Of a DNA stretch of 64,000 nucleotides, positions 47,001 to 64,000 are shown in pieces (the first letter of the stretch is position 1; the number at the start of each line of letters is the position of its first letter). Made by a program: the position numbers and the translations under genes. This stretch comes from an uncultured Acholeplasmatales bacterium (GTDB lineage Bacteria; Bacillota_I; Bacilli_A; ML615J-28; CAG-698), in contig CALEGD010000065.1 in the NCBI GenBank assembly GCA_937877075.1, positions 13,906 through 77,905 of the forward strand. The letters run 5' to 3'. The notes under the pieces were generated by a model that worked only from the letters and a program-made list of their open reading frames with translations, did no database searches and was not told the origin of the DNA.

Positions 47001-49624
47001 TTAGATAAACCAATACATCCTGAAAAAGCATTAGCACCGATAATTTTCAAACTACTATTGAAGATTACAGATTTTAGACCTGTACATCCCATAAATGTCG
47101 AGTCACCAAGACTGCTTAAATTATCTGGTAATCTAACTGACGTTAAGGAAGAGCAACCCATAAAAGCTGAGTCGCCGATTAGAGTTATGCTATTAGGCAT
47201 ATTTATAGTAGTAAGAATAGCACAATTTCTAAACGCATAGGCCTTAATTTCAGTAACATTTGAAGGTATTCTATAAGAACCAGTTTTACCTGCAGGATAA
47301 TGTATTAAGCTCGTTTCAGATTTATTAAATAGCACTCCGTTAATATCGGTATAGTTTTCATTTTCTTTATCTACATTGATATTTAATAAATTAGTACAAT
47401 TATAAAATGTATTCTCATCAATATTACTAACAGTATCCGGGATAGTAATTAATTCTAAACTTGAACAATTATAAAAACTTCCTGGTTTTAAGTCTCCACC
47501 TGTTATAGTGACAGTAGTTAAACTCAAAGGAAGATAATAAATTGTATATTTGTGCGAATAATATTGGCTTGCCATATAACTGCCTTCAAAGAAGGAATTG
47601 CCAAATAGATAACCAAATAAGGCATCGCTTTCGACTGCATCAATACTAGCCCCAATAAATGGTAAAGTAATTTCAGTTAAAGCTGTACAACTAGCGAAAG
47701 TATTCTTTCCAATTGTTTGTACAGAATCAGGAATGACAATAGAGGTTAGTTTCTTACAATTCCAAAAGGCATTATCACCGATATAAACGATACTTGATGG
47801 TAAGCTTATACTTTCAATATCGGTATTCATAAAGCCATTATGATCTATACCAATAACCGGTTTTCCACTATAAAATTCAGGAATAACTATATTTTTAGAT
47901 TCTTCATTCCCCGCAGATACATAATATACATCATCTACAAGAATGTAATTCAAACCAAAGGTTGCTTGTTCATCACTAAACCATTTCGCATAGAATACTT
48001 TATCGCCTTTGCTGTCTTGAGGAATAGAGAATATTGCCTGACCTTCAAAATCAATATTATCATACCAACCAGCAAAAGTATTAGTACCCTTGGTGGGATC
48101 TCTCAACTCTATTTCGTCGTCAACATTATAAGATTCAGGATTAAATTGATCATTTAGACCACCATTAAGATTATAGGTAATGGAATATTCTTTTGGTGTC
48201 CATTTTGCCTGCAAGTTTAGAGCGTGAGAAGGCATATTAAATGTATATTCCATCTCAGTTGAAAGTAAATATTCACCATCATACCAACCAAGAAAAGAAT
48301 ATTCGTCTTTTAAATTGCTATCAGTTGTAGTTTCAGCAATAACAGTAACTGGGGAATCAAAATCAAAACTTGCATTTGTTCCACCATTGTTGAAACTAAT
48401 TTCTCCAGAGCGTTCATTGTTTTTTGTAAGAGTTACTTCATACTCATTTATTGTATATACTGCCTTGAGGTTTGCGTTTTCGGTATTATGCCAGAAAGAT
48501 AAACCTCTTCCTTCCTCATCAGTATATTGAATTTCATTTTGATACCATCCTGTAAAGGTATGTCCTTCTTTCCTTGGCACAGGCAATTCATATGCATCAT
48601 TATATCTGATGGCCTTTGTTGCTTGACTTACATTTCCGCCATCAGGGTCTAAAGTAATGTTGTATTCATTTGCGATAGGACTAACCTTTATCTTCAATCC
48701 ATCCCTAGCTAGGAATTCAGAAGGTTCTTCTATAATTTGATATGAACCCGAAGCTAAATAAGCCCATTTAAAATCAGAATAGCCTAAGTTTGCTTTGTAT
48801 TCAAACTCTGGAACACTTAAATAGCTATCGGTTGCATAGTGATGAGTTATGATAAACTCACCATTCTGATCATAATAAGAAACTAAGAAAGTGCTTTTTT
48901 GTTCTATCGTTAATCTAATACTTTTAGATTCTTCTGGCAGAAAAATATAATAAACTTTTCTTTGTCCAGGACTTATTTCTATTACAGTATTAGAAACTTG
49001 ATTTTTCCCATCTTTATCTTCACATAAATCCCATCTCCTAGAAGAACTGATATAGTCTGCTAAACTGATAGATTTAGTATTATATGGAACTCTTAAATAT
49101 AACTCATCCGAGAAATTTGATACATTTAAGATTTTTACCATTCCATTTGATATTGACAGATTCGAAGCGATGTAAGATTTGCTTTCTTGAGTAAAGTAAT
49201 CTTTATCTTCTGAATAAAAAGGTACTTGTTCGCCACTGCCTCCATTTCCAGTTTTGTAAATCTGAGTCATTCCCATCATGCTAAAGGTAAGGACGCCATC
49301 CTTAACTGTGCCACTCATGAGTTCTTCTTCTTCGCCAAACACTTCAGAATAGAGGGTTATTTTATCTCCATTTAATTCAAATCTACCTCCCATTCCGTCA
49401 TTGTCGGTCCACTTGTTTCCACTTTTAAGTTCAAACCAAGATTCTTCATTTTTGAATTCGCCATCATATTGATAATATTTTCCAGAAATGCCTCCTCCTT
49501 GACATCCCGCTATCGGAAAGATTAACAAAGTAGCGATCAGAAAGAAGAATAGTTTAATAAACTTTCTCTTAACTGATTTCTTCACGATTTTCTTCTCCTT
49601 TAATTTTAGAAATTGTAAAAACAA
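41075..49624 (-). CDS. giant surface lipoprotein: 3 Listeria-Bacteroides repeats followed by dozens of BspA-type leucine-rich repeats
   Basis: 2849 aa. Lipobox IAGCQGGG. Repeats ending ...GHTFTGWY / FLGWY / FAGWY. Recurring LRR unit IPDSVTSIGxxAFxGCxxLTxITLP with super-repeats of ~110 aa and FAIQxGxLxQYxG modules. Confidence 0.8.
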   Translation of the reverse strand: MFLQFLKLKEKKIVKKSVKRKFIKLFFFLIATLLIFPIAGCQGGGISGKYYQYDGEFKNEESWFELKSGNKWTDNDGMGGRFELNGDKITLYSEVFGEEEELMSGTVKDGVLTFSMMGMTQIYKTGNGGSGEQVPFYSEDKDYFTQESKSYIASNLSISNGMVKILNVSNFSDELYLRVPYNTKSISLADYISSSRRWDLCEDKDGKNQVSNTVIEISPGQRKVYYIFLPEESKSIRLTIEQKSTFLVSYYDQNGEFIITHHYATDSYLSVPEFEYKANLGYSDFKWAYLASGSYQIIEEPSEFLARDGLKIKVSPIANEYNITLDPDGGNVSQATKAIRYNDAYELPVPRKEGHTFTGWYQNEIQYTDEEGRGLSFWHNTENANLKAVYTINEYEVTLTKNNERSGEISFNNGGTNASFDFDSPVTVIAETTTDSNLKDEYSFLGWYDGEYLLSTEMEYTFNMPSHALNLQAKWTPKEYSITYNLNGGLNDQFNPESYNVDDEIELRDPTKGTNTFAGWYDNIDFEGQAIFSIPQDSKGDKVFYAKWFSDEQATFGLNYILVDDVYYVSAGNEESKNIVIPEFYSGKPVIGIDHNGFMNTDIESISLPSSIVYIGDNAFWNCKKLTSIVIPDSVQTIGKNTFASCTALTEITLPFIGASIDAVESDALFGYLFGNSFFEGSYMASQYYSHKYTIYYLPLSLTTVTITGGDLKPGSFYNCSSLELITIPDTVSNIDENTFYNCTNLLNINVDKENENYTDINGVLFNKSETSLIHYPAGKTGSYRIPSNVTEIKAYAFRNCAILTTINMPNSITLIGDSAFMGCSSLTSVRLPDNLSSLGDSTFMGCTGLKSVIFNSSLKIIGANAFSGCIGLSKLVIPDSVTSIGSSAFSGCRGLTEMTLPFIGSGKITSQTNSLFGYIFGTTYYEGSYSAKQFYYYNPAYPQSYNATYYIPSGLDTVTITGGIVNYGAFFNCINIKTVNLMSVTEVEDYAFAFCISIEEIVFPDSITKMGNSILYNCNSIEAITVPYLYTTAANLFGSNICSKIKTMTVTGGTTIPESAFSGCNNLTTVVIPDSVTSIGRNAFRGCENLTEMTLPFVGTRINASPDLALFGNIFGNTSFTGSIAVEQYYSETGKVIFNLPSKLTKVTITGGEIKYGAFSNCRNLNSITLPEVTSIGDKAFYNCTSLTSLNMPESVTSIGRDAFNNSKLEYQVYDGNLKYLGNWLIDTVNTTITNINFKYNTIGIYDNAFANCSNITSVVIPDTVLSIGSGAFSGCTSLEEITLPFVGESISSSNNHFGFIFGATSYGTNANYVPSSLKKVTIKDGQIASNAFYGCKNLTSVNISDKVSKIGDGAFAGCSGLTEMVLPFVGAGKTTQASERLFGYIFGQTFYTGSITTDQFYASYSKMTYYIPANLRNVVITGGSINYGAFYNCSTLTSITIPTELTSIGEKAFYNCNNLVSITIPKSVVNIGDSAFASCSKLQNVNMAEDSELITIGFNAFENCTSLLSITIPDGITSLYGSTFSGCSKLVTVIISENSKLNYLGDNVFSYCTNLESISIPDGVTSISQNAFYNSNKIIYEIYDNNLKYLGNWLMGTVGKTLESATLKPETIGIYYSALANCSNLISINIPEEVMIIYDNAFSGCSKLETVSFEENNKLWYLGDFAFAYCSNLVNTNLEENSQLEKLEDSLFSNCISLVTLTIPSGVTSIGEYTFNGCTSLTSIQLPESLTSIGNNAFNNCLGLSSLIIPDSVETIGQNALSSCGNLIDLTLPFVGASLDATGPSALFGYIFGKYSYPNAINIAQYYSSDSSTSYYIPQSIKKVEITGSKLNYGAFYNCSMIEEIVINNMENIGEAAFYNCNKLMSITIPQTTTNIGRAAFDKCLDLTYVYSNNPTPPEMIEAFKNNNIGLKIYVPAKALQSYQAKYPWSNYKNIIHSQAIIDENGFAIQEGLLVQYLGDLVDITIPNAVSKIGAYAFRDSLENITIPDTVIELDNNAFRDCINLSNVEFLENSQLELIGNYAFYGCLDLESIVIPTTVTKIGQYAFNGNTNLRNVYFDPNSELSIIDDYAFSNCDGLESIIIPTNVTNIGYYAFKFSDNLRTVILKPLTPPVLEYGAFESNLSVKLYVPLESLSSYQGADNWKNYLSNIYSESIIDENGFAIQDGRLIQYHGSLNEVTIPDSVTQIGAYAFDYHLTSVTIPASITKIDDYAFKGCSNLESVVFEEDSQLQSIGNYAFNDCLELEFIALPANLTSIGSYAFAGCRKLSVLEIPSGVIALSDYLFSGCTGLTAIALSDGLNRIGSYAFNGCTSLNSINIPANVVSISSNAFSGCSGLEEMTLPFVGESKEATNASALFGYIFGTTSYSGSTEATQVYNGSSIKYYIPSGLVKVNITGNSLNYGAFSNCVMINEITIKNVTNIGSYAFSGCSNLNSIVIPNGITTISNNAFAGCSSLLSITVPSSISSIGDNAFSNCTDLATVFLNGTTPPVLGTGAFTNNGSGRRFYVPSLQLSSYKSATGWVSYSFSIFSKTIINSNGFAIQNGKLIQYTGNSTDITIPSTVSSIDHYAFNNRVIRVELLSGVTTITEYSFRNYRNIAEIVVASGNNYFSSIDGILYDKSGTKLILYPIGRTDTTYNIPDGVLTIGKYAFKDCNNLISIAMPSSLTDIEEYAFMGCSSLKSVNIPNSVNNISDYIFSGCNSLTEVNLPFLGKNRETAMLLGYLFGTEQYQGSIGARQRNHVGMIATFYLPSGLRKVTVNGGAIAYGAFYDCALLNQVILNNVTRIDAFAFSYCNNFSLRLYNTTPPTLDSYALDNTYSLTIYVPTSSLFTYKNTNVWRNYSSIIYGF

Positions 49625-51542: not shown

Positions 51543-52832
51543 TTATATAGATTTTTCCCCTCGATTTAAAATTTTAATTACACCCTTTTTCTTGATTTGC
51601 TCTATAGAACTTTCAACTACTCTTCCTATTGTTACTTGACCATTAGAATCGATTACAATTGAAGCTTTTTGAACTTTAACTCCAGTTGCCTCAATATCAC
51701 CGCTTCCTTTAATAATAATATCTAATTTTTTACAATATCCATTTTTCAGATTAATATTACCATTTCCAGAAATACGTAAGTTTGCTTCACCTTCACCACT
51801 TATATTATGAAGTGTTATATCTCCAGATCCATTTATATTTGCGTTAGTTGAAACCAAATTTTTAACATCAATATCACCTGATCCATTTATTGATGCATCC
51901 AATTTATTAACATTTTCCCACTCTATATTTCCTGAACCATTAATTAATAAATTACCTGTTTCGGTATTTTTTGCTTTTATTAAACCAGATCCATTTATTG
52001 ATGAGATGCATGATTCAAAATTATTCATCTTAATAATTCCTGATCCATTTATCATTAATTTGCCATTTTCAAAATAACTTATCTCAGATATCAACTCTCC
52101 ACTACCATTTACTTTTACTAGCGCAGTTTTACCTGTTTCACATGGTAATTCAACAACTATACTATTTTTTTGATATGATGTATTATTATATCCCTCTTTA
52201 TTATCAAATCTAATAATTAGTTTCTCTTCTTGAACTTTTATATCCAACATTTTAATAAATCGTGTTTCGCCATTTGCATGAACTCTACATTTATTATCTT
52301 TTGATTGAATAATCTCACACTTATTTAAAAGCACTTCAATATCCAAACTATCAATATAATCAAACTCATAGTTTTTTGATTCTTTTGAAAAATCAATATT
52401 ACTATCTACATCATCTAAAACCAATAACCTTATCTCCCCTTGTCCAACATTAATAACTAAGTTATTAGATAATTCCGCTGTACTACCATCTTTAAATTTT
52501 ATTCCGGAACCATCGATAGAATCTACAATTTTTGAAGAATAACAAGCTTTGTTTTGATATTGATGTACTAATTCCATACTCTCATAAATCTTAGGAAATG
52601 AAATATCATTTTTTAAATTATTCTTTTTAATACCAAATAAATAATCAATCTCCACATTAAAAATAGTAGCAATCGTTGGAATTAGTGTAATATCAGGATA
52701 ACTTTGATCGTTTTCCCATTTTGATACTGCTTGTCCTGTAACTCCAAGTCGTTCAGCAAGCTCCCCTTGAGTCATATTTTTCTTAGTACGTAAGTCGTGA
52801 AGTCTTTTTCCAAATCCATCAAAACCAAACAT
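51543..52832 (-). CDS. XRE-family HTH fused to DUF4097 (beta-helical putative-adhesin) repeats
   Basis: N-terminal LRTKKNMTQGELAERLGVTGQAVSKWENDQSYP. C-terminal repeated INGSGDI / ISGNGNI / IKGSGDI beta-strand units. Confidence 0.7.
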   Translation of the reverse strand: MFGFDGFGKRLHDLRTKKNMTQGELAERLGVTGQAVSKWENDQSYPDITLIPTIATIFNVEIDYLFGIKKNNLKNDISFPKIYESMELVHQYQNKACYSSKIVDSIDGSGIKFKDGSTAELSNNLVINVGQGEIRLLVLDDVDSNIDFSKESKNYEFDYIDSLDIEVLLNKCEIIQSKDNKCRVHANGETRFIKMLDIKVQEEKLIIRFDNKEGYNNTSYQKNSIVVELPCETGKTALVKVNGSGELISEISYFENGKLMINGSGIIKMNNFESCISSINGSGLIKAKNTETGNLLINGSGNIEWENVNKLDASINGSGDIDVKNLVSTNANINGSGDITLHNISGEGEANLRISGNGNINLKNGYCKKLDIIIKGSGDIEATGVKVQKASIVIDSNGQVTIGRVVESSIEQIKKKGVIKILNRGEKSI

Positions 52833-53251: not shown

Positions 53252-53328
53252 CAGAGTATAGCTCAGTTTAGTAGAGCGCTTGATTTGGAATCAAGAAGTC
53301 GTGGGTTCAAATCCTTCTACTCTGACCA
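53252..53328 (+). tRNA. tRNA, probably Pro (anticodon UGG), with encoded CCA
   Basis: Cloverleaf by hand. Acceptor CAGAGTA/TACTCTG, D-arm GCTC-AGTTTAGTA-GAGC, anticodon arm CTTGA-TTTGGAA-TCAAG, T-arm GTGGG-TTCAAAT-CCTTC (one U-U mismatch), discriminator A + CCA. D-loop and T-loop match Firmicute tRNA-Pro(UGG), but position 37 is A, not G. Confidence 0.6.
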
Positions 53329-53495
53329 AATAACTATTTTATATTAATAAATTTTAAAAATGTATGTTTTTCAATGACATCTACCTCTTCTTTTGTAATT
53401 TAGTGAACAAGTATATACTTATCTTCTTGTTTATAAATTAAGTTGGAGGAGGGTTAATTTTTGTTGTATTTATTTATATTATATTAGTATAAAAT

Positions 53496-53711
53496 TTGAA
53501 TTTATTGAAAGGAGGGCATATTATGACATCAACAATAAAAGAAAACTTTACTAATAATATTATGTTTTTAGAAATATATAAAAATTACATGCATTTCTAT
53601 GACATCAATCAAGTAAAATTTTTGGGTTTTGCTATAGATGTAGTGACTAGTGAAAAAGTTTTTACTATTAGATCTATTAAATGTAATTATAAATATTTAA
53701 GTAGAATTTAA
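53496..53711 (+). CDS. small hypothetical protein
   Basis: 71-aa ORF preceded by GGAGGG RBS (aaggagggcatattATG) and followed by a strong terminator. Confidence 0.3.
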   Translation: MNLLKGGHIMTSTIKENFTNNIMFLEIYKNYMHFYDINQVKFLGFAIDVVTSEKVFTIRSIKCNYKYLSRI

Positions 53712-53780
53712 ATTATAATTCTTTAAGAAGAGATTTCTCTCAAAAAAATTTATTATATTCCCACTAAAATAGCATAAATA

Positions 53781-53817
53781 ACATTGTCATACCATTCATT
53801 ATGACAATGTTTTTTTG
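53781..53817 (+). terminator. rho-independent terminator
   Basis: Perfect 10-bp inverted repeat ACATTGTCAT / ATGACAATGT with 10-nt loop, followed by TTTTTTT. Confidence 0.65.
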
Positions 53818-53826
53818 TAATGTAAT

Positions 53827-53944
53827 TCGTCAGGCAGTCCTCGTCTTGCCCACCCGTCCTTTTTGACTAGTCCGAGCTGACATCTGACTGACTGGTCCTT
53901 GACCTGGACAGACAAGACGTCATTGACTTGCAGAAGCGTGTCAG
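53827..53944 (+). repeat. GC-rich GTC/GAC-word intergenic repeat, copy A
   Basis: Contains ..GAGCTGACATCTGACTGACTGGTCC..GACAGACAAGACGTCATTGAC.. and aligns to copy C over ~90 bp. GC content far above flanks. Confidence 0.6.
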
Positions 53945-54148
53945 ATTAATCTTACCTTTTTCTTCAGTTGCAACCAATTTATAACTCATTATCATTAAAT
54001 CTATCATGATAATGATATGTGTCTCTAATAGACAAGTTTAGGTTAGACTTAATCTTGTATTATTTGTTTAAAATTAGTAATGTTAGAATTTAAGAGATTT
54101 TTAAATCAATATCAAGTTCGAACATATTGTTTACAGACATGATTTTTT

Positions 54149-54415
54149 CTACTTCATCGAATGGTAAATACTTTTTTCAATTTTTACTATGTTCCACGTT
54201 TTGTTAAACTCTTTTTCAAAATACTCATCAAATAAAATTTGTGATTGCCCATAAGATTTCTTGCGAATATCATCAGATTTGAAGATTATACCTATACTTT
54301 TTCCTTTTTCATCATAAACTAAATAACCAGACTTTATACGTCCACTCTCTGAATAGGTAAATACTCCTTTTCTTCCTTGACGATTTACAATTTTATTCTC
54401 AATGAAAATTTTCAT
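54149..54415 (-). CDS. hypothetical small protein
   Basis: 88-aa ORF. Lys-rich. Confidence 0.3.
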   Translation of the reverse strand: MKIFIENKIVNRQGRKGVFTYSESGRIKSGYLVYDEKGKSIGIIFKSDDIRKKSYGQSQILFDEYFEKEFNKTWNIVKIEKSIYHSMK

Positions 54416-54655
54416 ACTATAAACCTTTCTTGTTATGCATCTTTGTTATATCTATAAATTTTAAAATATTTTTTATACCTATTTAATTTTGTTGTTTTAT
54501 TATCATTTCACTATTAATATTTTATAATTTAAAATAAAATTTTAAACCTAAAATATAAATGCAAAGCAAACTTTGCAAATTATCTTGACAACTAATTTCT
54601 ATTATGATATTCTATTATTGCAAAGTAAACTTTGCAATAATTACAAGGTGATATA

Positions 54656-54871
54656 ATGAAGAATAAAATTGCAGAATTAAGAAAAGAACGTAAAATATCG
54701 CAAACTGATCTAGCAGATGCAGTATTCGTTTCAAGACAAACAATTACCTCTATTGAAATTGGAAAATACAATGCATCACTGGAACTAGCATATAAAATTG
54801 CTAAATATTTTGGTTTAACGATTGAGGAGGTATTTGATTTCAGTGAAGTTGAGGTGAAATATAATGACTGA
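54656..54871 (+). CDS. XRE/Cro-C1 family HTH transcriptional regulator
   Basis: LRKERKISQTDLADAVFVSRQTITSIEIGKYNASLELAYKIAKYFGLTIEEVF. 71 aa. Overlaps the downstream membrane-protein gene by 8 nt. Confidence 0.8.
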   Translation: MKNKIAELRKERKISQTDLADAVFVSRQTITSIEIGKYNASLELAYKIAKYFGLTIEEVFDFSEVEVKYND

Positions 54872-55316
54872 AAAAGAAAAATTATATAAAACAAAAAAGA
54901 ATATAAAAGTAATGTTATATTTAAGTATTTTCTATTTTATATTAACATTTTTTATATTTGTTGAATCATTTTTTATTAATAAAGAACAAAATTTATCTTT
55001 TGTAGGAGGTGTAGCTATTTTCTTATATGCACTTCTATCTATAACATTAGCTTTTATTGTAATCAATCTATATAGACTAAATAATCCAAAAACGATCAGA
55101 AGAAAAGCTATACGTGATTTTGATGAAAGATTATTAGAAATACATCATTCAGCCAATTCATCTACTTTTAGGGTTTTATTTATAATTAATTTAATAACAA
55201 TGATAGTTTCTATTCCTCTAAACTCATTAGATTTATTTACATATTCCATTATTTTATTGTTTATTGTACCTATAATTCATACCTTAATTAAAGTAATTCT
55301 CAAAAAACGTTTGTAA
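54864..55316 (+). CDS. 4-TM membrane protein (partner of the small XRE regulator)
   Basis: 150 aa with four hydrophobic helices. Translationally coupled to the regulator. Confidence 0.5.
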   Translation: MTEKEKLYKTKKNIKVMLYLSIFYFILTFFIFVESFFINKEQNLSFVGGVAIFLYALLSITLAFIVINLYRLNNPKTIRRKAIRDFDERLLEIHHSANSSTFRVLFIINLITMIVSIPLNSLDLFTYSIILLFIVPIIHTLIKVILKKRL

Positions 55317-55331
55317 GAAAGGAGGAACAAA

Positions 55332-55601
55332 ATGAAATATGCAAGCAAAAAAGAGTTGTACGCAATATTCGCGATAGTTGCCATATTCTTAGTATTAGGA
55401 ATTAGTAATGGGCATAAGCTTATAGAAAGTTTAAAACCATTATTCAACTTACCAAAAATTGCTTTTGCTGGATTTCTTTCTTTTGCATTTGTTGGAATAA
55501 TAATGGCAATTGGAAATAAATTTGGTATATGGTTTGGTAAGCGTGGTGGTGCAATATTGTATTCAATTGTATTGATAATTGTTGGTTTAATTGTATTCTA
55601 A
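55332..55601 (+). CDS. small 3-TM membrane protein
   Basis: 89 aa. GGAGG RBS 6 nt upstream. Confidence 0.45.
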   Translation: MKYASKKELYAIFAIVAIFLVLGISNGHKLIESLKPLFNLPKIAFAGFLSFAFVGIIMAIGNKFGIWFGKRGGAILYSIVLIIVGLIVF

Positions 55602-55720
55602 ATCGAAGGGATTGAAATAAATTGTATATTCAACAATCTAATCCATAAAGACTAGTAAACATTGTTAGTGGTACTAGTCTTTTTTGTATGGACTTTTTTC
55701 TTTCATCAATACACACCATA

Positions 55721-55984
55721 TTATTTCAGTTTCCATAGTTTTTCTATTCTTTGAATCTTATTTTCTCTTTCAAGTTCCCTGAGAAGTCCTACAATCCAAA
55801 ATACTTGTTGTGAGGATGTTGCATTTTCATGAGTTCCCCAGTCCAATCCACATTCCCTAAAGATTTCTGCTTGCTTCATACCTTTGGAATATACACTACA
55901 TTCTTGTTTTGATTTCATATAAGAAAAAACCAAATCTTTTATTTGAAGTCTTAATTCTGTACCATCTTTTAAAAAATCTTTCAT
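55721..55984 (-). CDS. hypothetical small cytoplasmic protein
   Basis: 87-aa ORF. Confidence 0.3.
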   Translation of the reverse strand: MKDFLKDGTELRLQIKDLVFSYMKSKQECSVYSKGMKQAEIFRECGLDWGTHENATSSQQVFWIVGLLRELERENKIQRIEKLWKLK

Positions 55985-55998
55985 ATAAATTCTCCTAT

Positions 55999-56478
55999 TT
56001 ATTCCATAATACTTTTTAAATCAGCTAATTTAATTATATGTTTATACTCTCTTCCAATTTTATCAATAAAAACAAATGATAATTTTTTAGTGTTTTTAGA
56101 TACTTTTTCTAAAATTGATTTTGCCATTTCTTTACCAATAACAAAAGTATATTGGTCGCCATATAATAACTTTACCGGAAGGTTTGTAAATGGAAACTTA
56201 TCATATGGTGGATTAATTATTAAAGATTTATTTTTACTTAAATTTCTAATACCTACAAAGTCAATTGTAATAGGAATGTTTAAACTTTCATTAATTAAAA
56301 AAATTGTATAAAATATTTCTTTAGAGTTTTTTGGGTAAATTTGACCTATAATAAAATTAATCTTATATTTTGCTTTTGTATTAGCAGTAGAAATCCGAAT
56401 TGCTATAAATGCTGAAAAGAATGTTGCAATAGCTAACAATAAGTTTGAAATTGTAATTAAGATATCTCCATTTTGCAT
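55999..56478 (-). CDS. hypothetical N-terminally anchored protein
   Basis: 159 aa. One N-terminal TM helix. Confidence 0.3.
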   Translation of the reverse strand: MQNGDILITISNLLLAIATFFSAFIAIRISTANTKAKYKINFIIGQIYPKNSKEIFYTIFLINESLNIPITIDFVGIRNLSKNKSLIINPPYDKFPFTNLPVKLLYGDQYTFVIGKEMAKSILEKVSKNTKKLSFVFIDKIGREYKHIIKLADLKSIME

Positions 56479-56647
56479 AAATTATATCCTTTCTCTTTAC
56501 AAAATTACACTAAATAATCAATAAATTATCATCATTTATTCCATTAAGTATTTATTTACAAAAACCACAACAAAATGATAACACATTTTTTAAAATATTG
56601 CACCGATTTATTAGTTCATTAATAATTATTACATTTATCTATTCTAT

Positions 56648-56757
56648 CGGCTCAACATGTCGTGTCAAAGTCATCCTTGTCGACAGACAGTCCAATGACG
56701 ACGTCTTATTTCAGTCTTTGATAGGTCAGGACAGTCTTGATGTATGTCGGACTTGTC
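56648..56757 (+). repeat. GC-rich GTC/GAC-word intergenic repeat, copy B
   Basis: ..AAGTCATCCTTGTCGACAGACAGTCCAATGACGACGTC.. shares AAGTCATCC and GTCGAC with copy D, and the GACAGACA..GAC..CGTC core with copies A and C. Confidence 0.6.
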
Positions 56758-56854
56758 TATTTAATTTTGAAAAAACTTTATATTACTCAAAATAATAGTT
56801 TATTTTAGTAAATATAATAGATTATAAAAAGCATGCAATAGCCGTTATCTAGCT

Positions 56855-57208
56855 TTAAACATTAGTTAGATAGTATTGTGCGTTTTGTAAAGACATTACT
56901 ATATCATCAATATTACCATCAACTTTAGCATTTAAACAATTAACACTCACTTCCGCGATCACATGTACGAAATTAGTACTATACCAACTATTAGTTAAAT
57001 CCTCATTTCTTTTCATTTTAACATAATTATATATTCTACTAAAGTCGTGTTTAAAGACTTTATATTTGTTTCTTATATCTTCTAATTTAACATTTTCATT
57101 ATTAATAAATTCAGCTATTTGCAAAATCGCTTTTAATTCATTTAACTTATTTTCTAATATATCTTTTAATTCTTTAGCATCTAAACTTTTATAATCCATA
57201 ATCCCCAT
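56855..57208 (-). CDS. hypothetical protein (downstream partner of the kinase gene)
   Basis: 117-aa ORF. Same strand, 200 nt after the kinase gene. Confidence 0.3.
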   Translation of the reverse strand: MGIMDYKSLDAKELKDILENKLNELKAILQIAEFINNENVKLEDIRNKYKVFKHDFSRIYNYVKMKRNEDLTNSWYSTNFVHVIAEVSVNCLNAKVDGNIDDIVMSLQNAQYYLTNV

Positions 57209-57412
57209 AATCCTTCTCCCAATTATATAAATCTAATATCTTTTATATTTATTTATTCAAAATTTAATATTACTAATGCTTAAATATAGTTATTAATGAT
57301 CTTTATTTTTATAAAAATCTTCAAAAAAGGAGTGAAATACCTTTTTTCAGCCTCTTCTCTTACCTTTTTTAGTTTTTTTTATTTTCAAGGTGTTATTTTT
57401 GAATCTAATAAA

Positions 57413-58966
57413 TTAATAATCAGTTTTTCCATATAGAATATTTTTTATTTCTTGTTCTATTGCTTTATTATTTTTTAGATTTTGTGCCAAATCATTAGCA
57501 CTATACCTTATTGTTGAACATCCGTATAATATAAGCGCAGCGTGAAATTTAACGTTTATATTAATTTTGTTATTCAAAATTATCTTATATGATAATTTAC
57601 TAAAGTAATCATAATTATGAAATTTGCCATAACCAGTCGCGTCTACATAATTAGATTTAATAGATATAATTGTCTTTTCTTGTAAATTATACTCCAATTG
57701 TTCAAATATTAAATCAAAATTATTTAGTTTGTTTTCTATGATAAAGTAAGATACATTATTATTGTTAACTAAATCTATAATATATTTTTCTTCAGATTCG
57801 CCGCAAATTCCTATATGAATATTGTTTAAAATATTTATTTGATTAAAGCCATTTAATTTAATTTGAATCAACTGATTTATAGCTATTATTATCTCTTCAT
57901 AATTATTATATCTATCTTTTTTTTCATACTGTAAACATTTATTTATTATCGGTAAAATGTAATTACTTTTACCAAATGTGCCATCGCCCATAATATAATC
58001 CATTATCTTGCCCACAGAATATATATCACTCTGAATATCAACATTTTTAAAATTTTTAAACCCTTCCGGAGAAATAAATGCGTGATTATTCTTTCTTCCA
58101 GAAGATGTAATCAAACTTCTTATAATGGAACTATCTTTGCCTAAACCAAAATCTGCAATTATCAGAGAATTATTTTTTATTAATAAATTTCCTAAATGTA
58201 AATCTCTATGAATAATTCCATTCAGGGCAGCATAATTTAACAATTCTAAAATCTCTAAAATAATTTTAATTTTTCTGTTTTCAGTTAATATATTATCATT
58301 TAAATATTCAAATAAATCACATTCACATCTATCCATTAAATAAGATAAATTAGCAGCATCAAAATCGTATACTCTAAGGAATCTACTATTTGAAGATAGT
58401 TTTTCCATCATTTGATACTCATATTCAAATCTCTTCTTATTTTCTTCAGTGAGACGTTCTCGTTTTAAAGTCTTTCGTACTAAAGTATCATTCAAAATTT
58501 CAACATAACAAAAATATCCATCCCTTGTTTCATTACTATTTATTATTCTTGAATATTCTTTGTCATCAATTATAGTAAGTTCATTTCTATTTAACATAGC
58601 TTTAATCTTTTGACAGAATTCATAACATACATTATCGTTAGTAATATTCTTATTATATAAATTATATATTGCTTCAATAAATTTAATTTTGGTATCAGAA
58701 TTTACTCCTTTAAACTCATCAATCAAATTCATTTGATCATTATAATTAATGCCTACCTTTGTATAAATGTAATCTTCTAAGGAAAAATAATCGTGCCTAA
58801 AATGACTTTTTTCTAAATATTCATCTAATATTAAACCTTCATAGTAATAATTCGTCTTCGTAATCTTATTACTTGTAAAATTTTCAATTATGTAATCTAA
58901 AAATATTTGAAATGATTTTGAATCAATCATAAAATCTTCTCCTACTCTTGTGTAATTGTTTATCAT
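57413..58966 (-). CDS. eukaryotic-like Ser/Thr protein kinase domain flanked by N- and C-terminal domains of unknown function
   Basis: Central kinase core: LVRKTLKRE (beta-3 Lys), HRDLHLGNLL catalytic loop, DFGLGK, FISPEG, DIYSVGKIM. About 140 unknown residues before and ~160 after. Confidence 0.7.
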   Translation of the reverse strand: MINNYTRVGEDFMIDSKSFQIFLDYIIENFTSNKITKTNYYYEGLILDEYLEKSHFRHDYFSLEDYIYTKVGINYNDQMNLIDEFKGVNSDTKIKFIEAIYNLYNKNITNDNVCYEFCQKIKAMLNRNELTIIDDKEYSRIINSNETRDGYFCYVEILNDTLVRKTLKRERLTEENKKRFEYEYQMMEKLSSNSRFLRVYDFDAANLSYLMDRCECDLFEYLNDNILTENRKIKIILEILELLNYAALNGIIHRDLHLGNLLIKNNSLIIADFGLGKDSSIIRSLITSSGRKNNHAFISPEGFKNFKNVDIQSDIYSVGKIMDYIMGDGTFGKSNYILPIINKCLQYEKKDRYNNYEEIIIAINQLIQIKLNGFNQINILNNIHIGICGESEEKYIIDLVNNNNVSYFIIENKLNNFDLIFEQLEYNLQEKTIISIKSNYVDATGYGKFHNYDYFSKLSYKIILNNKININVKFHAALILYGCSTIRYSANDLAQNLKNNKAIEQEIKNILYGKTDY

Positions 58967-59070
58967 ATTATAAGATATATTTATATCTTAAAAAAGTAAG
59001 TAAATCCACATATTAAGTCAATTTAATTATAACATAAATAATAAAACTGTACTATATCTTTTTACGATAT

Positions 59071-59182
59071 TCGACAGTCAGTCTCTAGTCGACATCTTCT
59101 GTCGTCTGTCATTAACCGGTCAGACAGACAAAAAGACATCGTCGTTCAATTGACAATGTCTTAATTTTGTCCTATCTATGTC
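59071..59182 (+). repeat. GC-rich GTC/GAC-word intergenic repeat, copy C (longest)
   Basis: ..TAGTCGACATCTTCTGTCGTCTGTCATTAACCGGTCAGACAGACAAAAAGACATCGTCGTTCAATTGACAATGTC.. with internal inverted repeat GTCTGTC / GACAGAC. Confidence 0.6.
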
Positions 59183-59326
59183 GGAATATGAGGGTTTATC
59201 TTGGTCTCTCTTACCATCTTATTCAAGATCTTCCTTAGATATTTGCTTTGTATTCCTATAATGCTAGTATTGTTTATAATATATCATTAAAAGATTGAAG
59301 GAAATTATTTAGTTTATAAAATATAA

Positions 59327-60283
59327 TTATTTAAATTCTTTATTTACATATTTATCATATAAACATAAATCATCATTAATTTTTATTATCATTAATACAT
59401 ACAGCATAAGAAAAATCATATAATCTTCCTCATGTTGTTCAGATTCTGTACCATGAAGATAACTATTTCTTAAATCTAACCCGTTCGTAAATGTGGATTT
59501 ATTTAAATAGAAATTTAAATAATCTATTTCAGGCTTTGAAAATAATGTATCTCCATATATAATATAATCCTTTTTAAAGAGTATATCAAATTTGCATCTC
59601 GTTTCACCGGGATAATAATAATAAGAAATTACCTCGTTAAAATATAAGTCTTTTAATATTCTTATTATATCTTTGTCTATATATGATAAGTATCCTGTAT
59701 TAGAAATATTTAAAATATCATTATCGCATAGATATTGTATAGAAATCTTTTGAAATTTTTCGTACTCCTTTATATTTACATTTCTTGATATTAATGCATT
59801 ATCGAGATTTTTATATTCTTTACCTTTACCATTTTTTCTGAAATATCCAAGTAATGTTTGATCAGAGAATAATAAATACATGATTTGCTTACACTTTTCA
59901 GAATTATTGTTTAAATATACATACTTTCGTGAAATAGCACTTGGAATATCTGAAAATTGAATTGGGGATGAGAAGTTCAATAACTCTTGTGTTATTTTTT
60001 TATCCCTCACCCAAAGCCTATATTGTTTAAGGCTTTTTTCCATCTCTGGTGCTATCATTCTACATTTTTCTAAATAGGATGACTCTTCTGAAGGTATTTC
60101 TATTTGGAAATTTTTTATTTTAAATTCATTTTTTAAATAGTCTTTAAAAAACCATGATATTATTTCTTCGAAACGAATTTTTAAATTTAACAACAGCTTA
60201 TAATATGATCCCATTTGCAGAATTGCAAATCTATTTGTCATATCAAAAGCAACACCTTTTATATAGTCATTTTTAGAATACAT
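59327..60283 (-). CDS. Abi_2 (AbiD/AbiF)-like HEPN protein, probably part of a disrupted larger gene
   Basis: C-terminal LDLRNSYLHG fits the HEPN R-x4-H motif of Abi_2 proteins. The same frame is open without any start codon up to a tandem stop TAA GTA TAA at 60581-60589, then open again to 60862. Confidence 0.4.
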   Translation of the reverse strand: MYSKNDYIKGVAFDMTNRFAILQMGSYYKLLLNLKIRFEEIISWFFKDYLKNEFKIKNFQIEIPSEESSYLEKCRMIAPEMEKSLKQYRLWVRDKKITQELLNFSSPIQFSDIPSAISRKYVYLNNNSEKCKQIMYLLFSDQTLLGYFRKNGKGKEYKNLDNALISRNVNIKEYEKFQKISIQYLCDNDILNISNTGYLSYIDKDIIRILKDLYFNEVISYYYYPGETRCKFDILFKKDYIIYGDTLFSKPEIDYLNFYLNKSTFTNGLDLRNSYLHGTESEQHEEDYMIFLMLYVLMIIKINDDLCLYDKYVNKEFK

Positions 60284-60914
60284 AAAAATTTTTTCAAATA
60301 TGCCTAAATCTTCTCTTTTTGACGTATTAGAAAATCTAAAATTTTCATCAACATAATCAAAGAGATAGATAAAGTTATTAAGTAGTGTAGAGTAATCAGG
60401 GTTCTGTTCTATCCATTTTATACTATATTTAGCGATTAAAGTTAAACCATCTTTTTCCCGCTTGCTATATATTTTCCTTGCTTCAACCTGACTTTCAATA
60501 AAAATGATATTTATGCCAGTATAATACCCACTATTACTAGGGAAAAGTTTAGCCTCTAATTTTTCTGCCTTTTTTTTGCTTTATACTTAGTTATATCTGA
60601 TAATGAAAATTCTTTTATTAAGAACTAATCTTATATAATTTAAACTTGCATTTTTACTATTAATATATTCTAAAATAATAGCTTCTTTATCTACTGTGGT
60701 TAATTCTTTAGGTAAATATAGATTATTTTCACTTTTAATAACGTATTTATCTAAAATTAATTCACCTGCCTTTGGATACTTTAATAACCTTTGTTTTATT
60801 TGCTCCCCGAAAAAGTTTACTAAATTTTTAAATTTAAGTATTGATCCAATATATACATTTTTAATTTATATAAAACATGAAAATGTCTCATTACTTATTG
60901 ACTTATAAATCTTT

Positions 60915-61283
60915 TTAAATATCATCACTATTTATTTGAAAAATATAATAACCTTCTTCGGAATAAAGTTTAGTATTTTCCAACAGTTCTTTTGGATTAG
61001 CCAATTGTATAAAATCACTAGTTTCATCCATTGAAAAATTAAAAAGAGTAGATATCATTTGAGGATATTCAAAAGTAATTTCAATAGCATTCTCTCTATA
61101 ACTTTGATCAGTACATCCATATAATACAATTTTATCTGGACCCATATGTCCATAATCAAAATCCATCCACCTATAATCATTCAAATATTTGTTTATTTTT
61201 GAAATTTCAGTTTGAACATCAATTTTTTTCATTTGAAATTGTTGTAAATATATTGAATTATTATTCATAACTCCAACCTTCAT
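60915..61283 (-). CDS. hypothetical protein
   Basis: 122-aa ORF in a different frame from the downstream broken gene. Confidence 0.3.
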   Translation of the reverse strand: MKVGVMNNNSIYLQQFQMKKIDVQTEISKINKYLNDYRWMDFDYGHMGPDKIVLYGCTDQSYRENAIEITFEYPQMISTLFNFSMDETSDFIQLANPKELLENTKLYSEEGYYIFQINSDDI

Positions 61284-61536
61284 TCATTCTTATCTTTATA
61301 TGTTATATAACTTTTATTTGTTTTAGTAAAATCTATTTGGAATTAGTATTTAAACGCTAACTTGGAATTTTACGAATAATAGTAATTCTTTACAATACAA
61401 CCTAAATCTATGAGCACTATAATCCCTTGTTTTTCATATTTTCAAACAATAAGATATACTAAACTATTATTTTGTTAATTAATTCACTAAATTGGATAAC
61501 ATCCAGCGTTATTCTATCTTCTCTTATGAGTTTACC

Positions 61537-61872
61537 TTATTCACTAAAATGCTCAATGTGGTTTTTAGTTATTAAATAATAATTAAAATCTTTTTTAAAT
61601 AATTTGATACAGTACCCTTCAAGTTCACCCGGTGCACCAAAGGTTACCGTGATTTGTAATTTTGAAAACTCATCTATAAATTCAACCAAACTATCTTCTT
61701 GTTCGATTGAAATTATGTGATCACTATCTGTTGGACTATTATAATATAATATTTCAACTTTAATTACATCCTGTTTTAATTCATTAGAGTCAAACATTAA
61801 ATCTTTTGAACAACCTGACATAAACAAGATAAAACTTATAATTAATGTAAAAATAAAAATTTTTTTAAACAT
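61537..61872 (-). CDS. small lipoprotein
   Basis: 111 aa. Lipobox FMSGCSKD. Confidence 0.5.
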   Translation of the reverse strand: MFKKIFIFTLIISFILFMSGCSKDLMFDSNELKQDVIKVEILYYNSPTDSDHIISIEQEDSLVEFIDEFSKLQITVTFGAPGELEGYCIKLFKKDFNYYLITKNHIEHFSE

Positions 61873-61969
61873 AGTTTTCCCCTTTTACTTGCACTACATA
61901 TTAATAATTAATAGTTCTATAACTTGGAATTTGTCAAGCAATCGTGCAATTCCACAATTGGCAAAACAG

Positions 61970-63229
61970 TCATTTCCAAAAGGAAAAACATGCTTTACCA
62001 TGCATGGGCCCTGGCTTATCTTCTAAATGATAACTTGTAAGATTAAATGTTGATAAATCTGAATTAACAACAAAAGTATTTGTATAGTATTCAAGTACAA
62101 TTCTTTTTTCATCCTCAGTATATAAACATAAAAATTCTTTCTCATCTATTGTTTCAAAGGTATACTGTCCCTTAATGCTTTCATTCACATTTTTTGATCT
62201 ATCAGAATATTCAAATTGGAATAATTCATATGTACCATCGTCATTCATTATTAAGGTTGATTGACCTTCCTCATAGATACTATAATAATATTGACCATAT
62301 AATATTTTGCTATCTAAACATTTTGTATTAAATGTACGTTCTAAAAAATCTCCATCTCGATATTCAATTTTATAAAAATATATTTTATTCATCTCTAGTT
62401 CAATTTCTATTTGTATAAACCATGATCCTTCATATACTATTTTTTCGTTGGTGAGTTCTTGATTGTAATCATAATTTTTAATTACTATTTTAGTAAATCT
62501 TTCTTTCGAATGATAATTTGTTGTATATAAAAAGAATTGATATTTATTATTTGGTAAAAATTTATTTTTTTTAGTATAGGATTCATTAATCAAGTAAAGA
62601 TTCTTATTGGTATCACTGGATTCACTCTTATTCCACTTATAATTTACTCCACCAATCATAGCTATGGAATTATCACTCCCAGTACCATATTCACCAATAT
62701 CATAGCCAAATGCATAAGATACTATAGGAGGATGAAGATAAAACTCTGGAAGAGTACCTAGTACTTCCACACCACATAAATCATAAAAAAATGTTGAACA
62801 TCTGTTAAAAGTTTCACTTGGTCCATCATTTATTCCAAAGGATACTTTTGATGAACCATCAATGTATTCAATTGAGATACTCCAGGAACCACCATCGATA
62901 ATCCCATCTTTTTCATATTTATCTTTTAAATTGAATAACCCCATACTATAACAACCATTTATAAAAACTTTTTCTTCTTCCTCAGAAAAAGTTCTTTTCA
63001 CTTCAAGTTCTGGTTCATGTTCTTGACTAGGTAAATAGCCATTTGTTAAATATTGATTATTTACAAAATCTAATACCATATTACTTCGATATCCACCATT
63101 AAAATCTATGGTGTGATAAGAAAGTTTTACTATTTCTTTTCTATCATATTCTTTTATTCTATTACAAGATGCAAGAATAATGCCAAAAAATGAGATTAAT
63201 AAAATTAAAAAAAATTTTTTCATATTCAT
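61970..63229 (-). CDS. lipoprotein of unknown function
   Basis: 419 aa. Lipobox ILASCNR. Tyr/Asn-rich secreted domain. Confidence 0.5.
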   Translation of the reverse strand: MNMKKFFLILLISFFGIILASCNRIKEYDRKEIVKLSYHTIDFNGGYRSNMVLDFVNNQYLTNGYLPSQEHEPELEVKRTFSEEEEKVFINGCYSMGLFNLKDKYEKDGIIDGGSWSISIEYIDGSSKVSFGINDGPSETFNRCSTFFYDLCGVEVLGTLPEFYLHPPIVSYAFGYDIGEYGTGSDNSIAMIGGVNYKWNKSESSDTNKNLYLINESYTKKNKFLPNNKYQFFLYTTNYHSKERFTKIVIKNYDYNQELTNEKIVYEGSWFIQIEIELEMNKIYFYKIEYRDGDFLERTFNTKCLDSKILYGQYYYSIYEEGQSTLIMNDDGTYELFQFEYSDRSKNVNESIKGQYTFETIDEKEFLCLYTEDEKRIVLEYYTNTFVVNSDLSTFNLTSYHLEDKPGPMHGKACFSFWK

Positions 63230-63440
63230 TCCTTCCTAGTAGTATAACAACTACCTACCCCAATTTTTTGGACACATATTATTACAGTGCATATTATTAA
63301 TTTCTTATTTCGATAACTTACAATTTATCGAGCGATCATTTTATTAAAGTATATCATAATATTTTAAATAATACTACCATATTTTGTTATATTATATTCA
63401 GTTCCCATGTTTATTATCATGTCTATTCATTATAAATATC

Positions 63441-63527
63441 ACTTCACGCATCATCCGCCAAGTCATCCAATCTTCATTAAGTCATTTGTCGACCTCTTCT
63501 GTCGTCAGTCATTGACAGATCGTGTAT
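63441..63527 (+). repeat. GC-rich GTC/GAC-word intergenic repeat, copy D (internally deleted version of C)
   Basis: ..AAGTCATCC..TTTGTCGACCTCTTCTGTCGTCAGTCATTGACAGATCG.. matches copy C 25/27 over GTCGACMTCTTCTGTCGTCWGTCATT, then skips two internal segments. Confidence 0.6.
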
Positions 63528-63588
63528 CAACATACAAAAAAACCTCAAATGGTTATTGTCCCACTTGAGAGAAGTTTTAGAAATATAA

Positions 63589-63954
63589 TCATTTGGAATT
63601 AATAAGAGGTAGATATTGATCAATTGATAATGTCTTTTCTACTCCTTTATTGAACAAAGTTATTCGCCAGATATCATCTTGTAATATAGGTAAATAAAAC
63701 ATATGTCCAGTTTGAAGTGAAGCTTGAATATAACACTTTTTAAGTTCTTCTATCTTAGAAATATTCATGTTTTTGACAAAGGCAAATTCTGATGATTGAT
63801 TCAAACTTTTTACCTCAAAGATGTGGATCCTTACAAACATATCCTTCATAATAAAATCGAGATACGAAGAATGTATACCATCTAAATGGTATTCAAATAT
63901 AACAGTTGATTCTGGAACATAGTTCTTTCCCGAAAGAAATATTTCTTTTTTCAC
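63589..63954 (-). CDS. hypothetical protein
   Basis: 121-aa ORF. Confidence 0.3.
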   Translation of the reverse strand: MKKEIFLSGKNYVPESTVIFEYHLDGIHSSYLDFIMKDMFVRIHIFEVKSLNQSSEFAFVKNMNISKIEELKKCYIQASLQTGHMFYLPILQDDIWRITLFNKGVEKTLSIDQYLPLINSK

Positions 63955-64000
63955 TTATGACTATATCTTTTTAAACTTCACCAAACGGATTGATTGAACC

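Follow-up and report, generated by a model that had tools for sequence, protein, structure and literature searches.

We analysed a 64,000-nucleotide (nt) stretch of DNA from an uncultured Acholeplasmatales bacterium (contig CALEGD010000065.1, positions 13,906 to 77,905; hereafter the window), in which four intergenic patches, labelled A to D, mark the junctions between gene modules of a tRNA-flanked island of low guanine-plus-cytosine (GC) content. All four are crowded with the complementary trinucleotides GTC and GAC (together GWC, where W is A or T), and they constitute a real, statistically extreme compositional feature that belongs to no known family. Of our results, the most telling is that high word density persists where sequence similarity has been lost. 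Our favoured explanation, to which we assign a probability of roughly 30%, is that the patches are DNA-level clusters of a short protein-binding word, acting as intergenic boundary or regulatory sites between modules. The patches are as follows (bp, base pairs; aa, amino acids):

Patch A, 53827–53944, no strand assigned: 118 bp, 54% GC, 17 GTC/GAC words; between convergent open reading frames (ORFs), 15 nt from a bidirectional terminator.
Patch B, 56648–56757, no strand assigned: 110 bp, 46% GC, 17 words; downstream of a 117-aa gene and upstream of 159-aa and 87-aa genes.
Patch C, 59071–59192, no strand assigned: 41% GC, 17 words; downstream of a PDC-S56 fragment and upstream of an Stk2 gene. 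Its end had earlier been placed at 59182; the final word, TATGTCGGA, extends to 59185.
Patch D, 63441–63527, no strand assigned: 87 bp, 44% GC, 8 words; between the terminator of a 121-aa ORF and the promoter region of a 419-aa lipoprotein gene.

The rest of the island has a GC content of 24.1%, and base composition does not account for the words. Mononucleotide shuffles gave means of 4.0 words for A, 3.2 for B, 2.7 for C and 2.1 for D (standard deviation (s.d.) about 1.6), and shuffling A, B or C never yielded more than 12. Across the window, the mean is 1.28 GTC/GAC words per 100 nt (s.d. 1.43); the densest 100 nt elsewhere hold 7 words in window positions 1–53328 and 8 words in 208 kilobases (kb) of low-GC DNA from other organisms. 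Relative to base composition, GTC is enriched 5.2-fold and GAC 4.5-fold, nearly every G is followed by W and then C, and GTT (one occurrence in 427 nt), GAA and GC-dinucleotide words are nearly absent. Both orientations occur in each patch (36 GTC and 23 GAC on the plus strand, pooled), and short dyads such as GTCGAC, GACGTC and GACnGTC are abundant. Extension of the word is weakly biased, roughly to T-G-W-C-A, and spacing is irregular, with peaks at 3–4 nt. After controlling for the gap distribution we detected no periodicity, of 10–11 bp or otherwise, so helical phasing of the words was rejected; tandem arrays were likewise discarded, as Tandem Repeats Finder reports none in any patch.

Alignability was assessed against a null model in which GTC/GAC words and leftover single bases were shuffled as tokens, preserving word content. 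Under this null, C and D align in direct orientation (score 44 versus 18, s.d. 3; p≤0.002), B is marginal across 12 tests (p=0.02 with C and p=0.046 with D), and A does not align with any other patch (p>0.18). A profile search with nhmmer concurs (C–D, E=3e-4; B–C, E=1.1; no match for A). The similarity of C and D lies in an ungapped 37-nt core:

Homologous core, C side, 59080–59116, plus strand: AGTCTCTAGTCGACATCTTCTGTCGTCTGTCATTAAC; 31 of 37 positions identical to 63480–63516, ungapped score 44 versus a null of 15 (s.d. 2).
Homologous core, D side, 63480–63516, plus strand: AGTCATTTGTCGACCTCTTCTGTCGTCAGTCATTGAC.

This core holds a 26-nt stretch with 24 identities and an imperfect 7-bp dyad, GTCGACA-5-TGTCGTC. 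Its 18 word positions match throughout, and all six mismatches lie among the other 19 (hypergeometric p of about 0.01). We also considered that an exchange of arms had made the patches a mosaic, as short matches such as TCGWCAGNCAGTC (A, B and C) might suggest, and rejected the idea because ungapped scores of 16–21 are at chance level (95th percentile, 19).

These results bear on an original prediction, made from the letters of the window, that the patches form a family of four GC-rich repeats built from GTC/GAC words. The GC-rich bumps, their positions and their make-up (41–54% GC; 8–17 words) are confirmed. The family is retained in part: C and D share the core and B is marginal, while A cannot be aligned once words are controlled. 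By these alignments, C and D are the only demonstrably related patches, and the family of four reflects shared word composition more than alignable homology. The direct-orientation core proposed for all copies breaks up into GTCGACMTCTTCTGTCGTCWGTCATT, found in C and D only, and GACAGACAA..GAC..GTC..ATTGAC, found in A and C only, and the proposed internal inverted repeat GTCTGTC/GACAGAC occurs in C only. Of the two palindromes said to be shared, GTCGAC is present in B, C and D but has three more occurrences elsewhere in the window, and GACGTC is restricted to A and B. Nor is D a copy of C with two internal deletions: beyond the core only a weak 14-nt stretch is common to both, and the left 40 nt of D, the left end of C and a hairpin in C have no counterpart.

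Word number was compared with neutral expectation by simulating the divergence of C through random substitution until its alignment score fell to the level of A and B. With indels ignored, 4–5 words were left on average and at most 12 in 300 runs, and the outcome was the same with C's own or the island's composition. Patches A and B each keep 17 words though they cannot be aligned to C, which supports the favoured explanation.

The position of the patches supports it as well. Their predicted intergenic location and spacing of 2.4–4.4 kb hold for all four (A–B, 2.8 kb; B–C, 2.4 kb; C–D, 4.4 kb), as does the claim that they separate modules of the tRNA-linked island: the Stk2 kinase, the truncated PDC-S56 gene and a mobile lipoprotein gene, which were acquired independently. 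The minus strand is the sense strand of most island genes, and on it each patch lies 62–204 nt past a stop codon. All four also lie within 0–30 nt of terminator-like hairpins or overlap a promoter-like site:

53780–53811, no strand assigned: bidirectional terminator-like hairpin, 15 nt from A.
56641–56668, minus strand: TTGACA-16-TAGAAT, the top sigma-70-like match of the island (11/12), lying at B's downstream end and reading toward the 159-aa gene; a consensus match only.
59133–59162, minus strand: intrinsic-terminator-like hairpin and U-run inside C, after the PDC-S56 fragment.
63543–63570, minus strand: terminator-like hairpin of the 121-aa ORF, 15 nt from D.

The relation to these signals differs from patch to patch. 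Patch A precedes the bidirectional terminator, B carries a promoter-like site, C starts with a terminator hairpin, and D lies 15 nt past a separate terminator and upstream of promoter-like sites of the lipoprotein gene. When an intrinsic terminator is taken as a GC-rich hairpin plus a U-run, one is found inside C only and none in B; those near A and D are separate, each 15 nt away. The hairpin in C is stabler on minus-strand RNA owing to its G.U pairs. This variety does not suit the shared regulatory leaders that had been proposed, and patch A, which lies between convergent ORFs, has no downstream minus-strand gene; the statement that every patch lies on the 5' side of a minus-strand gene block thus fails for A. 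A description as an intergenic spacer at module junctions fits all four patches.

Under the favoured explanation, each patch would be a cluster of a strand-symmetric GWC word, often TGWC(A), in which word number and not exact word positions would be kept. A DNA-binding protein, probably an oligomerising one, may occupy the clusters, and occupied clusters could then act as an insulator, roadblock or operator array between separately acquired and potentially toxic defence modules. The presence of both word orientations and of dyads fits double-stranded recognition better than a single-stranded RNA motif.

Several observations weigh against this explanation. Ordinary sequence-specific binding needs a word longer than 3 bp, and word spacing has neither a helical nor any other period. 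We have no candidate binder, and the XRE regulator encoded in the island probably has palindromic operators of its own that are unrelated. Promoter and terminator positions vary among the patches, and A lacks a downstream gene. There are only four examples, all from one strain and identical in each contig that carries them. In the simulation, indels could scramble the alignment while sparing words. Finally, along the extended alignment outside the core, D lacks three of C's words and so may be decaying.

Comparison with known element classes returned no match. Small proteins were rejected, since A has stops in all six frames and no frame is common to the patches, in line with the prediction that consistent coding potential is absent. 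Searches with Rfam 15 covariance models yielded only tRNA-Pro at the gathering score, and nothing overlapped the patches at E≤10. Folding z-scores against dinucleotide shuffles (plus strand, minus strand) were unremarkable for A (+0.17, -0.76), B (-0.56, -0.23) and D (-0.70, -1.34); those of C (-3.3, -4.7) are explained by the intrinsic-terminator hairpin running from 59162 to 59133 and the U-run after it. We saw no fold common to all four patches, which are barely alignable, with RNA folding parameters. A structured small RNA family, one of the classes originally suggested, is improbable.

Two further suggested classes fared no better. For attC sites of integrons, the GTTRRRY core is absent in or within 20 nt of any patch, RYYYAAC occurs once, in B, and the island and window ORFs scanned include no integron integrase. 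For miniature inverted-repeat transposable elements (MITEs) or repetitive extragenic palindromic (REP)-like elements, the longest terminal inverted match is 4–6 nt, no palindromic unit is shared and the other 53 kb of the window hold no copy. Remnants of tRNA genes and tRNA-derived att repeats were rejected too: the best match to tRNA-Pro or tRNA-Leu in the island is 14 nt long and lies inside the Stk2 gene. Iteron or operator arrays have a word of at least 6 bp at regular spacing; here the word is GWC, with no periodicity and no array reported by Tandem Repeats Finder. Among individual binding sites, the Spo0A 0A box (TGTCGAA), MetJ boxes (AGACGTC), Tn3-family res half-sites (TGTC) and the T7 primase site (GTC) each fit a subset of the words only, and the protein that would bind it is either missing from this lineage or implausible there.

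The island itself spans about 11.4 kb between tRNA-Pro(UGG) and a tRNA-Leu, as seen in window positions 53329–64000 and in positions 1–1900 of L001, a contig that extends 1.9 kb past the window end (L numbers are our labels for retrieved contigs and loci). The window as a whole has 31.7% GC, with 33% in positions 1–53328 and the 24.1% given above from tRNA-Pro to the window end. The borders are:

tRNA-Pro(UGG), 53252–53328, plus strand: left border of the low-GC island.
tRNA-Leu, about 0.7 kb past position 64000 (L001:1200–1285): right border of the island, followed by an ABC-transporter ATPase.

With the Stk2 kinase, the PDC-S56 fragment, two lipoproteins, an XRE regulator accompanied by two small membrane proteins and several small ORFs, this looks like a defence island in decay that lacks an integrase. 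We considered an integrase pseudogene next to tRNA-Leu and rejected it, as the integrase-like peptide there has no Pfam match. Three modules are described in more detail:

57413–58966, minus strand: Stk2-type anti-phage defence kinase, between B and C (PADLOC Stk2, E=6.9e-53, profile positions 58–498 of 500; Pfam Pkinase).
59327–60283, minus strand: C-terminal half of a PDC-S56 candidate defence protein, a truncated gene between C and D (PADLOC, E=3e-111, profile positions 332–644 of 649 only).
61914–63385, minus strand: promoter-gene-terminator unit of the 419-aa lipoprotein, with 94.6–95% DNA identity to loci in other Bacilli metagenome-assembled genomes (MAGs) in at least three contexts.

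The true start of Stk2 is probably the ATG at 58930 (MIDSKSF...) and not the first ATG at 58966; a ribosome-binding site, AGGAGAAG, precedes 58930, and homologues are about 489 aa long. Directly upstream of the gene, at 58972–58989, an 18-bp palindrome, AAGATATATTTATATCTT, sits beside a TATAAT box. The nearest Stk2 homologue (44% identity, L030) has no patch in its upstream region. The operon of the XRE regulator (54656–55601) has a promoter-like TTGACA-17-TATTCT that is flanked by two copies of another palindrome, TGCAAAGNAAACTTTGCA (54560–54577 and 54618–54637); these are probably the regulator's own operators, unrelated to the GTC/GAC words. One source labels the 121-aa island ORF a 'type III restriction enzyme', and the 87-aa ORF at 55721–55984 is winged-helix-like.

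Judged from its sequence relatives, the 419-aa lipoprotein gene behaves as a mobile unit of one gene, outside which homology breaks off sharply. It carries its own promoter region and a terminator hairpin, GGAATTGCACGATTGCTTGACAAATTCC, and its 90%-identity cluster includes members from other MAGs; same-strain copies aside, the remaining island proteins are singletons at this threshold. Relatives of the unit include a locus in Bacilli bacterium GCA_023228965.1, one that adjoins an IS3-like transposase (L049) and one with a recombinase fragment close by (L052), and a word-density scan found no word-dense patch at any of the loci in other contexts. Homology of the unit ends 55 nt before D, so D is not part of it and must come from another module or from the scaffold of the island.

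Further copies of the patches were sought in several collections. The pattern of the C/D core had no matches in genome or viral contig collections, and two patterns derived from B and C had none among viral contigs. A degenerate B/C pattern gave seven matches in metagenome contigs, which we attribute to chance as none is word-dense; the same collection failed to return a JGI contig that contains B and C and evidently lacks that sample, so this negative is weak. Searches by blastn at word size 11 (with C, then with A, B and D) gave chance matches of 19–22 nt against phages and nothing against plasmids, and nhmmer with each patch found nothing beyond C–D in 0.64 megabases of fetched loci. The word-density scan detected zero patches in the 208 kb of low-GC DNA from other organisms and zero in the other 53 kb of the window. 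The 429-aa XRE-DUF2807 regulator that flanks the island has relatives at 75–76% identity (L039–L042) and, as its best species-representative relative, a protein of Acholeplasmatales bacterium DTU067 (63%, L005); none of these loci shows synteny, a tRNA or a patch. The absence of other copies is weak evidence, since the collections were searched by exact pattern or blastn, and patterns built on two patches miss the other two and would likewise miss diverged members.

Identical DNA was recovered from contigs of two metagenomes, ENA ERZ27283064 and JGI 3300038318 (L001, L002, L038 and L051). Two of the contigs depart from 100% identity: L002 lacks 41 bp and has 449 nt of foreign sequence at one end, and L051 contains a run of N. 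The patches are invariant across every one of these same-strain contigs and so offer no variation to analyse. In the JGI contig L002, the foreign end (L002:1–449) is unrelated ABC-transporter sequence fused to the island inside a 111-aa lipoprotein gene (window position 61602), reflecting either a strain rearrangement or a chimeric assembly. The 41 bp missing from L002 (55663–55703) come from an inverted repeat, GACTAGTA...TACTAGTC, that lies where genes converge.

Three other explanations have to be set beside the favoured one. It is doubtful, though conceivable, that the patches are non-functional, cryptically simple DNA, either (GWC)n/(GWCW)n tracts prone to slippage or template switching or the decaying remnant of a longer GC-rich non-coding region that came in with the island. 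This would account for the many words in short runs, tandem or alternating (GACAGACAGTC, GACTGACTG, GTCGTC and GACGACGTC, for example), for the 3–4-nt peaks in spacing and for the poor alignability; the island is a gene graveyard (the truncated PDC-S56 gene and small ORF fragments), D with its 8 words appears eroded, and the searches run returned no copies elsewhere. However, efficient slippage needs runs longer than the 2–3 units seen here, and Tandem Repeats Finder sees no array in any patch. Four separate patches also hold 41–54% GC within 24%-GC DNA, and neutral substitution would erase most words before alignability goes, in a simulation that ignores indels. That the patches are RNA elements is improbable in our estimate. 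Such elements would be a 3'-untranslated or intergenic RNA or a small RNA, for example a sponge for a protein recognising GAC/GUC, or a terminator or stabiliser of upstream minus-strand genes. GC-rich segments standing out from AT-rich intergenic DNA classically point to structured RNA, the hairpin in C has G.U pairs specific to the minus strand and is followed by a U-run, and minus-strand folding energies are below plus-strand ones for A, C and D; A would moreover be transcribed in the 3' untranslated region of an 88-aa gene, before the terminator at 53780–53811. Yet Rfam gave no match at E≤10, A, B and D fold no better than shuffles on either strand, and no structure is common to the patches. 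GUC and GAC are both present where one oriented motif would be expected, and D lies past a terminator and ahead of the next promoter-like site.

We regard as rather doubtful the explanation that the patches are junctions or scars of site-specific recombination or tandem accretion, that is, att-like or cassette sites, with C and D as the attL/attR-like ends of a 4.4-kb module. In this island, with tRNA-Pro at one end and tRNA-Leu at the other, the patches lie exactly where unrelated modules adjoin; C and D, in direct orientation, share the 26-nt core stretch (24 of 26 identical) and its imperfect 7-bp dyad with unrelated sequence on either side; and modules do turn over, as the lipoprotein unit with 95% identity in other genomes attests. 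Against this, no recombinase domain was found with Pfam among the 15 island ORFs or 10 further ORFs of the window, which agrees with the absence of an integrase noted in the original prediction, and the integrase-like peptide by tRNA-Leu is without Pfam support. The C/D core is missing from A and B, the island has no tRNA-derived repeat, and the mobile lipoprotein unit stops short of D and is patch-free in its other contexts. Known arm-type site arrays are also far sparser than the approximately 17 words per 110 bp seen here.

Among known systems, the nearest in behaviour would be arrays of short binding words. Omega-repressor heptads (WATCACW) are arrayed upstream of several promoters of pSM19035, and iterons cluster at the origins of staphylococcal pathogenicity islands (SaPI) and P4, in each case as short binding words in mixed orientation. 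As in those arrays, several patches of about 70–120 bp lie kilobases apart on one mobile element, are intergenic or promoter-proximal and use one short word in both orientations. In contrast, omega-repressor and iteron arrays have contiguous or regularly spaced words of 6–8 bp and a binder encoded nearby, whereas the word here is 3 bp (at most 4–5), irregularly spaced and without a candidate binder. In layout, integron attC arrays would be nearest: these too are non-coding sites of about 60–140 bp that recur in direct orientation 3' of cassettes and divide an array into modules. The patches differ in having no GTTRRRY, a single RYYYAAC, no conserved imperfect hairpin and no integron integrase, and the modules between them comprise several genes with their own promoters and terminators. 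For each of these systems, the defining features that we tested fail.

Other parallels are more partial. Like the att sites of accreted cis-mobilisable elements (CIMEs) and integrative and conjugative elements (ICEs) at tRNA genes, the patches are direct repeats parting integrase-less blocks in a tRNA-adjacent island, and C and D have a short core with unrelated arms; unlike them, the core is not tRNA-derived, it occurs in two of the four patches only, and there is no integrase or excisionase. REP sequences and bacterial interspersed mosaic elements (BIMEs), MITEs and the GC clusters of yeast mitochondria are likewise short GC-rich non-coding insertions in AT-rich intergenic DNA, but the patches are not dispersed (four in 10 kb, none in the other 53 kb) and lack both terminal inverted repeats and a strong palindromic fold. 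As with the sponge RNAs CsrB and RsmZ and their many GGA motifs, function would depend on the copy number of a trinucleotide and not on alignable sequence; unlike those RNAs, the patches contain both complementary words, do not present them in stem-loops and are known from DNA alone.

Outside the island, the window contains several features of separate interest. A single ORF on the minus strand (41075–49624) encodes a giant protein of 2849 aa, 3.6 kb from the island. Within the 429-aa XRE-DUF2807 gene, positions 51804–52052 hold in-frame repeats (period 54 nt, at least four copies) that encode a recurring ...INGSG... motif; the repetition here is one of coding and not of non-coding sequence. 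Two paralogous genes (9705–11042 and 32056–33405) match the mannosylglucosylglycerate synthase model with 356 and 457 bits, below its cut-off of 640, and both sit in a region of sugar-transport and glycosidase genes. The pair may belong to a compatible-solute or glycoside pathway in an Acholeplasma-like genome.

A bolder reading, which we consider quite improbable, would make GWC clusters a new class of cis-acting boundary or 'landing pad' for defence modules in Acholeplasma-like Bacilli, recognised by a recombinase or an oligomerising binder encoded elsewhere in the genome; selection would act on word number and not on sequence, and modules would be insulated by the clusters as well as guided by them in their exchange. 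With four copies in one strain the finding cannot be generalised, and at present it is a curiosity, not yet a discovery. If the patches are functional, elements defined by motif density and not by conserved sequence would give a defence island its organisation, in a lineage that is uncultured and little studied, and they could be relevant to how small defence modules stay separate in their transcription or change places where there is no integron.

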